From Escherichia coli (GTDB lineage Bacteria; Pseudomonadota; Gammaproteobacteria; Enterobacterales; Enterobacteriaceae), in NCBI RefSeq assembly GCF_003334765.1, contig NZ_QOWT01000019.1: 64,000 bases of DNA; one strand, 5' to 3'. Of the stretch, positions 12,208-15,823 are shown one piece after another. The stretch's first letter is position 1; each line of letters starts with the position of its first letter. Position numbers and translations under genes: made by a program. The notes under the pieces are model-generated. The model made no database searches, was not told where the DNA came from, and saw only the letters and a program-made list of their open reading frames with translations.

Positions 12208-13572
12208 ATGAACGATTATAAAATGACGCCAGGTGAGAGGCGCGCGACCTGGGGTTTAGGGACCGTATTCTCGTTGCGCATGCTGGGCATGTTTATGGTT
12301 CTGCCGGTTCTGACCACGTACGGCATGGCTCTGCAAGGTGCCAGCGAAGCATTAATCGGTATTGCCATTGGTATTTATGGTCTGACTCAGGCCGTTTTTC
12401 AGATTCCGTTTGGCCTGCTTTCCGACCGCATTGGTCGCAAACCATTAATTGTCGGTGGGCTGGCGGTGTTTGCCGCCGGTAGCGTTATCGCTGCGCTTTC
12501 CGACTCCATCTGGGGAATTATTCTGGGCCGGGCGCTACAAGGCTCTGGAGCAATTGCCGCCGCCGTTATGGCGCTGCTTTCCGATCTCACGCGCGAACAA
12601 AACCGCACCAAAGCGATGGCGTTTATCGGCGTGAGCTTTGGCATTACCTTTGCCATTGCGATGGTGCTTGGCCCGATCATCACTCACAAACTTGGGCTGC
12701 ACGCGCTGTTCTGGATGATCGCTATTCTGGCAACGACCGGCATTGCGTTGACCATTTGGGTTGTGCCCAACAGTAGCACTCACGTACTTAATCGTGAGTC
12801 CGGAATGGTGAAAGGCAGTTTCAGTAAAGTGCTGGCGGAACCGCGGCTGCTGAAACTCAACTTTGGCATTATGTGTCTGCATATTTTGCTGATGTCGACG
12901 TTTGTTGCCCTGCCCGGACAACTGGCTGATGCAGGGTTCCCGGCGGCTGAACACTGGAAGGTCTATCTGGCGACAATGCTAATCGCCTTTGGCTCGGTCG
13001 TGCCTTTCATTATCTACGCTGAAGTTAAGCGCAAAATGAAGCAAGTCTTTGTCTTCTGCGTCGGGTTGATCGTGGTTGCGGAAATTGTGTTGTGGAACGC
13101 GCAAACGCAGTTCTGGCAACTGGTGGTCGGCGTGCAGCTTTTCTTTGTGGCGTTTAATTTGATGGAAGCCCTCCTGCCCTCACTTATCAGTAAAGAGTCG
13201 CCAGCAGGTTACAAAGGTACGGCGATGGGTGTTTACTCCACCAGCCAGTTTCTTGGCGTGGCGATTGGCGGTTCGCTGGGCGGCTGGATTAACGGCATGT
13301 TTGACGGTCAGGGGGTATTTCTCGCTGGCGCAATGCTGGCCGCAGTGTGGCTGACAGTCGCCAGTACCATGAAAGAACCGCCGTATGTCAGCAGTTTGCG
13401 CATTGAAATCCCGGCGAACATTGCCGCAAACGAGGCGTTAAAAGTGCGTTTGCTAGAAACTGAAGGCATCAAAGAAGTGTTGATTGCAGAAGAAGAACAT
13501 TCAGCTTATGTGAAAATCGACAGCAAAGTGACGAATCGCTTTGAGATAGAACAGGCAATTCGTCAGGCATAA
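12208..13572 (+). CDS. yajR: MFS transporter YajR
   Basis: 454-aa product starting MNDYKMTPGERRATWGLG; internal start of the 520-aa track ORF. Confidence 0.92.
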   Translation: MNDYKMTPGERRATWGLGTVFSLRMLGMFMVLPVLTTYGMALQGASEALIGIAIGIYGLTQAVFQIPFGLLSDRIGRKPLIVGGLAVFAAGSVIAALSDSIWGIILGRALQGSGAIAAAVMALLSDLTREQNRTKAMAFIGVSFGITFAIAMVLGPIITHKLGLHALFWMIAILATTGIALTIWVVPNSSTHVLNRESGMVKGSFSKVLAEPRLLKLNFGIMCLHILLMSTFVALPGQLADAGFPAAEHWKVYLATMLIAFGSVVPFIIYAEVKRKMKQVFVFCVGLIVVAEIVLWNAQTQFWQLVVGVQLFFVAFNLMEALLPSLISKESPAGYKGTAMGVYSTSQFLGVAIGGSLGGWINGMFDGQGVFLAGAMLAAVWLTVASTMKEPPYVSSLRIEIPANIAANEALKVRLLETEGIKEVLIAEEEHSAYVKIDSKVTNRFEIEQAIRQA

Positions 13573-13587
13573 AAAACGCGGCGAATT

Positions 13588-13677
13588 GCCTGCTGCGCTA
13601 CGCTTATCAGGCCTACAAAGTTTCTGAATTACAAACCTTTGTAGGCCGAATCAGGCGTTCATGCCGCATCTGACATG
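13588..13677. repeat. REP / BIME-type palindromic repeats between convergent yajR and yajQ
   Basis: GCCTGCTGCGCTACGCTTATCAGGCCTAC followed by an inverted REP-like unit (GTAGGCCGAATCAGGCG...). Confidence 0.6.
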
Positions 13678-13699
13678 AACAAAACGCACATAGTCGCGA

Positions 13700-14191
13700 T
13701 TAATCGCGGAAGTTTTTGAACTGGAACGGCTGACCGAGATCGCCACCACGTACCATCGCCATGACAGCCTGCAAATCATCACGAGATTTGCCCGTTACGC
13801 GGATTTCATCGCCCTGAATTTGCGCCTGCACTTTCAGTTTGCTGTCTTTGATCATCTTGACGATTTTCTTCTGGGTCGCGCTCTCAATGCCCTGTTTCAG
13901 TTTCGCTTCCACAAACCAGGTTTTACCGCTATGAACGATATTCTCCGGTACATCCAGCGAACTGCCTTCAATGCCGCGCTTCAGCAGCTTGGCACGCAGA
14001 ATATCCAGCAACTGATTGACCTGGAAATCGGACTCGCTCAACACTTTGATGGTTTTGCTGGCGTCGTTCAGCTCAAATGAGGCTTCAACGTTACGGAAGT
14101 CAAAACGGGACTCCACTTCGCGGCTCGCGTTATCGACCGCGTTACGTGCTTCCTGAAGATCAACTTCAGAGACAATATCGAAAGATGGCAT
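13700..14191 (-). CDS. yajQ: Nucleotide-binding protein YajQ (UPF0234 family)
   Basis: 163-aa product starting [19 protein letters not shown]; internal ATG of the 219-aa track ORF. Confidence 0.92.
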
Positions 14192-14269
14192 CTTTTCCTC
14201 TCCCTTCATTTTTGATGCGAAGCATAATACCCGCAAAGTTAAATAACCGACAGTCCTGCACCAGGACGT

Positions 14270-14313
14270 ATCCCTTAATTGTGCATAGTCGCAACAGCAT
14301 GCACAATTAAGGG
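14270..14313. promoter_or_regulatory. Perfect 16-bp inverted repeat with 12-bp spacer in the yajQ-panE divergent control region
   Basis: TCCCTTAATTGTGCAT-N12-ATGCACAATTAAGGGA, 46-89 nt upstream of the panE ATG; no flanking T-tract. Confidence 0.4.
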
Positions 14314-14358
14314 ATAGCCTTATTGAACACCCGGAGTGGTTGCGGGTGAGGAGGAACA

Positions 14359-15823
<1,465 letters not shown>

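Follow-up and report, generated by a model that had tools for sequence, protein, structure and literature searches.

Cleavage by RNase III destabilises the message in the case of the pnp and rnc leaders and frees the ribosome-binding site in the case of the adhE leader; the minimum helix for the enzyme is often quoted as about 22 bp. In all three (cited in PMC5371410), RNase III cuts a long stem-loop in the 5' leader, which alters the fate of the downstream message, and the panE-yajQ spacer of Escherichia coli is alike in this. A site named 'Intergenic (panE-yajQ)' was reported there, at NC_000913.3 444573, by Gordon, Cameron and Pfleger (2017, mBio, PMC5371410) and assigned to a hairpin in the yajQ 5' UTR. 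Coverage ratios (rnc mutant over wild type) at 444573 were 48 and 32, in vitro transcripts were cleaved by purified RNase III, and 5' RACE gave several cuts within the predicted long double-stranded region (PMC5371410). The half-life of the yajQ mRNA was approximately 6 minutes in the wild type versus approximately 3 minutes in the rnc mutant (PMC5371410); unlike the pnp and rnc messages, it is stabilised when RNase III is present, by a mechanism that a later review lists as not elucidated. The authors also pointed out that a complementary hairpin could form in panE-sense RNA, and stated that their RNA-Seq was unstranded (PMC5371410), so that the cut in vivo carries no strand assignment.

A perfect palindrome in the same spacer, singled out in a first-pass annotation of the DNA analysed here (a stretch of 64,000 nucleotides, called the window), is the already described RNase III site of 2017. 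The stretch has the same sequence as the reverse strand of E. coli K-12 MG1655, and published coordinates were converted to window positions as 458874 minus the coordinate for NC_000913.3, and as 458098 minus the coordinate for U00096.2 (checked against gene coordinates). NC_000913.3 444573 corresponds to window position 14301, which is base 3 of the right arm; the site in PMC5371410 has the very same sequence, and the object itself is no different. The annotation's statement that no described regulator acts here is overturned by that publication, and its alternative of a structured 5' leader element is borne out, the palindrome being a published RNase III site within the 267-nt leader of the distal yajQ transcript. 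What is added to PMC5371410 are strand-resolved transcription starts (from other data sets), promoter-like hexamers in the arms, the taxonomic distribution of the element and its invariance within the population. According to the primer table of PMC5371410, the T7 templates used in vitro, each of which includes the hairpin, map to 14146-14910 (panE sense) and 14497-13760 (yajQ sense). On the other side of yajQ, REP-type palindromic units are found between yajR and yajQ (13572-13690), with a weak, sub-threshold Rfam match to naRNA4 at 13644-13680; REP40a is associated with yajQ in one published table. The features of the locus are collected in Table 1.

Table 1. Positions of genes, transcription starts, predicted promoter elements and RNA structures at the yajQ-panE locus (window coordinates; starts from Cappable-seq data for the yajQ strand)
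Feature	Position	Strand	Details
yajQ CDS	13700..14191	-	
Proximal yajQ start	14216	-	U00096.2 443882, score 63.7, 25-nt leader
Proximal yajQ -10	14229 to 14224	-	TATTAT
Small hairpin GTCCTG-cac-CAGGAC	14253..14267	.	from sequence and folding
Left arm of palindrome	14269..14286	.	TATCCCTTAATTGTGCAT; 3' arm of the hairpin in yajQ-sense RNA
Middle yajQ start	14271	-	U00096.2 443827, score 43.2, 80-nt leader; outer end of left arm
Putative core promoter of the 14271 start	14278..14306	-	-35 TTGTGC (14306 to 14301), 17-nt spacer, -10 CACAAT (14283 to 14278)
Putative panE core promoter	14279..14307	+	-35 TTGTGC (14279-14284), 17-nt spacer, -10 CACAAT (14302-14307)
Loop of palindrome	14287..14298	.	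AGTCGCAACAGC; two extra loop-closing pairs predicted
Right arm of palindrome	14299..14316	.	ATGCACAATTAAGGGATA; includes 14301, the published RNase III site (NC_000913.3 444573)
Sense/antisense dsRNA zone, long yajQ leader with panE mRNA	14322..14661	.	p19-captured RNase III products
panE CDS	14359..15270	+	
Distal yajQ start	14458	-	U00096.2 443640, score 35.9, 267-nt leader; inside panE
Distal yajQ -10	14465..14470	-	TACAAT; panE codons TAT-TGT-AGC (Tyr-Cys-Ser), the TGT Cys codon supplying -11A

An inverted-repeat search gave two arms of 18 nt each, 100% complementary, around a loop of 12 nt, the outer edge of the right arm lying 43 nt upstream of the panE ATG. The repeat is thus perfect, as first annotated, with arms longer than the 16 bp given then. 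It stood alone in the 64 kb window as a long, closely spaced perfect inverted repeat; in shuffled versions of the window (n = 60) no perfect inverted repeat had arms of more than 13 nt, and by analytic calculation approximately 5e-5 repeats with arms of at least 18 nt are expected per window. An origin of the palindrome by chance is excluded. The stem folds on either strand (z of -5.9 and -7.1 relative to dinucleotide shuffles), with an energy of -27 to -36 kcal/mol for the palindrome segment, and it was present in both the MFE and the centroid structure of the 267-nt yajQ leader, with a mean pair probability of 0.97. Adding the two predicted loop-closing pairs to the 18 perfect pairs gives a helix of about 20 bp, so that the stem, at 18-20 bp, is slightly shorter than the often quoted RNase III minimum of about 22 bp. 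The smaller hairpin noted at first reading is likewise present. In the yajQ transcript with its start at 14271 it comes 4 nt after the 5' end, and in the long yajQ leader it follows closely on the RNase III cut. The region 14100-14450 held no terminator-like site on either strand, in agreement with the earlier view that the palindrome is not an obvious terminator; an intrinsic terminator was rejected as an explanation, a G+C-rich stem followed by a U run being missing there on both strands. A known RNA family was rejected as well, as a search of 13400-14700 with Rfam covariance models returned only chance-level matches (E of 6-8), none of them on the palindrome.

Cappable-seq captures triphosphorylated ends only, and on the yajQ strand the data (PMC4782308) give three substantial yajQ-sense starts, all with a purine as the first base. 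The distal start is the only one mapped there that transcribes both arms, and the share of its promoter in the capped yajQ 5' ends is about a quarter (35.9/142.7). No panE-sense start is mapped upstream of the arms in E. coli, the panE 5' end being taken from RNA-Seq coverage; the SMRT-Cappable-seq list contains neither gene. As tabulated in PMC7373196, Conway et al. place a promoter at U00096.2 443641, with a 142-nt overlap with the divergent panE operon, and the 5' end of that operon at U00096.2 443783 (window 14315); the dsRNA locus MS-115 of Lybecker et al. (2014), classed as 'Divergent', covers 443638-443836 (window 14262-14460). From p19 capture, Huang et al. (2020, PMC7373196) reported an RNase III-dependent duplex cluster (cluster 46) at 443437-443776, that is, window 14322-14661, ending 6 nt from the foot of the hairpin. 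The long leader of yajQ thus also contains antisense sequence to the panE mRNA, over the 5' part of the latter. The dsRNA of MS-115 and cluster 46 represents this head-to-head overlap of the yajQ leader with panE and is a second substrate of RNase III, in vivo; it is an intermolecular duplex next to the palindrome, whereas the helix of the palindrome is intramolecular.

The substrate in vivo might be the duplex between the yajQ leader and the panE mRNA, the hairpin being cut only in vitro. Such a reading is consistent with the duplexes of 21-22 nt that p19 captured over 14322-14661 (PMC7373196), with the 'Divergent' class of MS-115, and with the unstranded nature of the RNA-Seq in PMC5371410. 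We consider it unlikely, since the coverage ratio in vivo peaks at 14301, in the hairpin, and the p19 cluster stops at 14322, outside it, and since single in vitro transcripts were cut without a partner RNA. Cleavage of the intermolecular duplex and cleavage of the hairpin are not mutually exclusive, and the action of RNase III on the adjoining sense/antisense duplex could explain part of the effect seen in vivo.

The palindrome is, very probably, the stem-loop at which RNase III processes the long leader of yajQ. Of the three yajQ promoters, one fires from within panE (start 14458), and its 267-nt leader crosses the panE start in antisense orientation before taking in both arms, which are predicted to fold into the perfect 18-bp helix, or about 20 bp with the two loop-closing pairs. 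By cutting this helix, RNase III would remove the panE-antisense part of the yajQ leader, and the remaining yajQ mRNA would begin in the 3' arm, just upstream of the GUCCUG/CAGGAC hairpin; yajQ mRNA is approximately twice as long-lived with RNase III as without it. The rnc-dependent change in coverage at 14301, within the right arm (PMC5371410), speaks in favour. We infer both that the cut in vivo falls on the yajQ strand and the way in which cleavage may stabilise the mRNA. The size of the effect is a point against: it is two-fold on yajQ mRNA as a whole, which is large when the distal promoter supplies about a quarter of the capped 5' ends.

Folding was also used to ask whether cleavage relieves an occluded ribosome-binding site, as in adhE, and this explanation was rejected. 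In the MFE fold of K-12, the yajQ Shine-Dalgarno sequence pairs with the antisense of its panE counterpart in the long leader, and it is predicted to be mostly paired in all isoforms; its accessibility was 0.15 +/- 0.09 with the upstream segment shuffled, versus 0.15, and the Shine-Dalgarno pairing probability drops to 0.08 with the allele of most E. coli strains. An 8-nt perfect complement, ACCCGCAA/TTGCGGGT (14229-14236 and 14340-14347), encloses both hairpins in the predicted folds. The common E. coli allele C14232T gives an A.C mismatch in this helix on the yajQ strand; being polymorphic in E. coli and missing from the short panE mRNA, the long-range helix is probably non-functional. A separate hairpin, CACCCG-N9-CGGGTG (14328-14348), ends at the panE Shine-Dalgarno sequence GAGGAGG (14348-14354). 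Its arms read CACCTG/CAGGTG in 41 of the orthologous spacers, the compensatory CACCCG/CGGGTG in five (the E. coli window included) and the intermediate CACCTG/CGGGTG, with G.U on the panE strand only, in another five; these compensatory and G.U variants suggest that the panE leader has a structure under conservation.

Within E. coli, the spacer was single-copy in 5,425 of 5,426 complete genomes, and the 48-nt hairpin, loop included, was identical in 5,384 of the 5,425. The common SNPs at 14232 (C to T) and 14249 (G to A) lie just outside it, and near-invariance in 5,384 genomes while flanking bases vary argues for constraint on the hairpin. One arm variant, G14312A, turns the pair into G.U in RNA of the yajQ strand and into C.A in RNA of the panE strand. 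In E. coli 13TMH22 (L083, NZ_CP019256.1), a copy of IS1203 (IS3 family) sits in the right arm at approximately 14307/14308, directly after ATGCACAAT, and separates panE from the palindrome. Since one strain tolerates this insertion, an intact palindrome is not essential, which counts against the processing reading. In a further genome (NZ_LT883142.1, E. coli, H40) the spacer matches two places with a best coverage of 69%, which suggests another disruption of the spacer, near 14245.

These population data also bear on whether the palindrome could be what is left of a mobile palindromic repeat (REP, ERIC, RSA or MITE-like), or a miniature of one, with no function of its own. The segment that bears the hairpin does behave as an indel of about 50-60 nt confined to Escherichia and the Citrobacter freundii complex, and at one orthologous locus (L072) a 152-nt dispersed repeat with superficially similar ends occupies the same spot. 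An origin of this kind is nevertheless extremely improbable, the element being single-copy in every E. coli genome and the hairpin near-invariant between variable flanking bases. Each genome gave two matching places because the palindrome matches on both strands, so that there is one locus in each of the 5,425 genomes, which upholds the first-pass description of the element as unlike REP. No other copies were found in the 64 kb window, in phages or in true plasmids, and the plasmid matches that were obtained come from megabase-sized replicons. Local alignment to the ends of the 152-nt repeat scored no higher than shuffled controls in 11 of 12 comparisons and marginally higher in one (27, against a shuffled maximum of 26); descent of the palindrome as a collapsed copy of that repeat is not supported. 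The 152-nt repeat itself is an imperfect palindrome (L072:1284-1436) inserted after TATACTTA with an apparent duplication of TTA. Its family has a median of five full-length copies per E. coli genome (88-90% identity), such as the one between qseG and qseE, and occurs also in Klebsiella, Citrobacter, Salmonella and Pantoea; it has a weak Rfam match to Xanthomonas sX9, below the gathering score. It resembles the 152-bp 'RSA' repeat of enterobacteria.

Comparison was extended to 80 orthologous loci from Enterobacteriaceae, among which spacer length was bimodal. A perfect stem was found only in Escherichia (E. coli, E. albertii and E. whittamii), and a homologous but degraded stem in nine species of the C. 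freundii complex; the stem was absent from Salmonella, C. koseri, C. sedlakii, C. amalonaticus, Enterobacter, Klebsiella, Kluyvera and others among the 80 loci. The nine Citrobacter species carry one-sided transitions at five arm positions, all of them giving G.U on the panE strand, together with one compensatory pair (A-U to G-C). Pairing in the Citrobacter stem amounts to 88% on the panE strand versus 77% on the yajQ strand, and in 9 of 9 species the panE-strand stem is the more stable one, by 6-10 kcal/mol. Preservation of the homologous stem thus favours the panE strand, a point against a role on the yajQ strand. All non-Escherichia spacers contain, with minor variants, a GCGCTATACT box (-10-like TATACT on the panE strand). 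At 14251-14260 of Escherichia, GTCCTGCACC replaces GCGCTATACT and forms the small hairpin, which implies that the panE promoter was relocated in this genus. The strand bias agrees with a putative panE start downstream of the TATACT box, from which the Citrobacter stem would lie in the panE leader. An orthologous spacer of 170 nt from a MAG (L023) has a different insertion of about 46 nt, TCCCCCAAATAATTCGAGTTGCAGGAAGGCGGTGACGGAGTCACTC, at another position and unrelated to the palindrome.

The distal yajQ promoter has a similar distribution. Its -10 TACAAT occurs in Escherichia and in one species without the hairpin; among the 80 loci, this position (panE sense) reads ATTGCA in 36 and ATTGTA, the E. 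coli state, in 3, and most other genera use the Cys codon TGC, which removes -11A. The perfect stem and the distal promoter therefore co-occur, although the co-occurrence is of little statistical weight because it amounts effectively to one phylogenetic event.

The same comparison weighs on the proposal of the first-pass annotation that the palindrome is the operator of a dimeric regulator, together, in the form considered here, with the small hairpin. NtrC is the sole candidate with data: a gSELEX peak at 443,846 (U00096.2; window approximately 14252) has 41% intensity, TGCAC-type half-sites lie at 14257, 14281 and 14300, and a TGCACCA half-site in the small hairpin is close to the peak. The dyad TGCACCA-N3-TGGTGCA found no match in the spacer at up to three mismatches, nor did a sigma-54 promoter (TGGCAC-N5-TTGCA) at up to two, matches to the sigma-54 motif across the window being at chance expectation; the NtrC signal is one of binding in vitro. 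The five asymmetric arm changes in Citrobacter break the symmetry of the DNA and keep G.U pairs on one RNA strand, which argues for RNA rather than DNA constraint, and the element is missing in most Enterobacteriaceae, where both genes are kept. An operator is thus very unlikely and the proposal finds little support.

A role at the DNA level is suggested by the arms themselves, each of which holds hexamers resembling promoter elements. For the capped start at 14271, CACAAT ends at -7 and TTGTGC lies 17 nt upstream of it, both within the palindrome. The mirror position for panE predicts a start at 14314, 1 nt from the 5' end of Conway et al. (14315) as tabulated in PMC7373196. In this arrangement each -35 overlaps the -10 of the other promoter, with 43 bp between the starts. 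Agreeing with the consensus at 7 of 12 positions, the hexamers are weak and fall short of the scan threshold, and the scan found no strong sigma-70 consensus site around the palindrome. As the 5' end at 14315 is a boundary of RNA-Seq coverage, we infer the mirror promoters rather than report them as a result: the arms appear to act as two weak outward sigma-70 promoters, for yajQ at 14271 and for panE at about 14314. RNA made from either of them lacks the hairpin. The cores of the hexamers (ATTGT/ACAAT) were invariant in 12 of 12 Escherichia and Citrobacter sequences, and the yajQ-strand promoter reads TTGTTC-18-TACAAT in Citrobacter. The mirror promoters might also be sensitive to supercoiling, as the arms that hold their hexamers could form a cruciform between the two divergent genes. 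Symmetric bidirectional promoters with overlapping -10 elements and starts about 18 bp apart have reportedly been described by Warman et al. in 2021. As in that class, the symmetry of the DNA would give divergent transcription from a single site; unlike it, the -35 here overlaps the -10 and the starts are 43 bp apart.

It is conceivable, though we hold it doubtful, that this is the selected function of the palindrome: fully overlapping mirror promoters would admit RNA polymerase in one orientation at a time, and the hairpin with its cleavage by RNase III would be a by-product of read-through from the distal promoter. The correct spacing of the capped start from both hexamers and the near coincidence of the panE 5' end with the mirror position would both be accounted for, as would the fact that ATTGT/ACAAT is the invariant part of the arms in 12 species, with a better -10 (TACAAT) on the yajQ strand in Citrobacter. 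Loss in Escherichia of the TATACT box of other genera points the same way, since panE needs another promoter there. Promoters would require the hexamers only, but in Escherichia perfect complementarity takes in the outer 8-10 bp of the arms as well, and pairing of the outer arms is kept in Citrobacter through G.U and compensatory changes; the low number of consensus positions and the reliance of the panE start on an RNA-Seq boundary also tell against it.

RNase III processing of the long yajQ leader remains the preferred reading, and a wider one that includes it is put forward tentatively. The palindrome may be an Escherichia-specific three-way device, in which competing mirror promoters would couple the output of panE and yajQ and the RNase III site, in RNA that comes only from a third promoter created by a synonymous Cys codon within panE, would uncouple the yajQ message from its panE-antisense part; the Citrobacter version, older and imperfect, would lie in the panE leader, downstream of TATACT.

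Having been mapped and biochemically tested in 2017 (PMC5371410), the stem-loop is not an orphan element. The new observations (mirror hexamers at mapped 5' ends, a perfect stem specific to Escherichia and the strand bias in Citrobacter) are modest and in part inferential. The comparative pattern supplies natural mutants for testing how cutting of the leader hairpin stabilises yajQ mRNA, whether it affects panE and whether the arms serve as mirror promoters: the stem is perfect only together with a good distal -10, degraded in Citrobacter and absent elsewhere.
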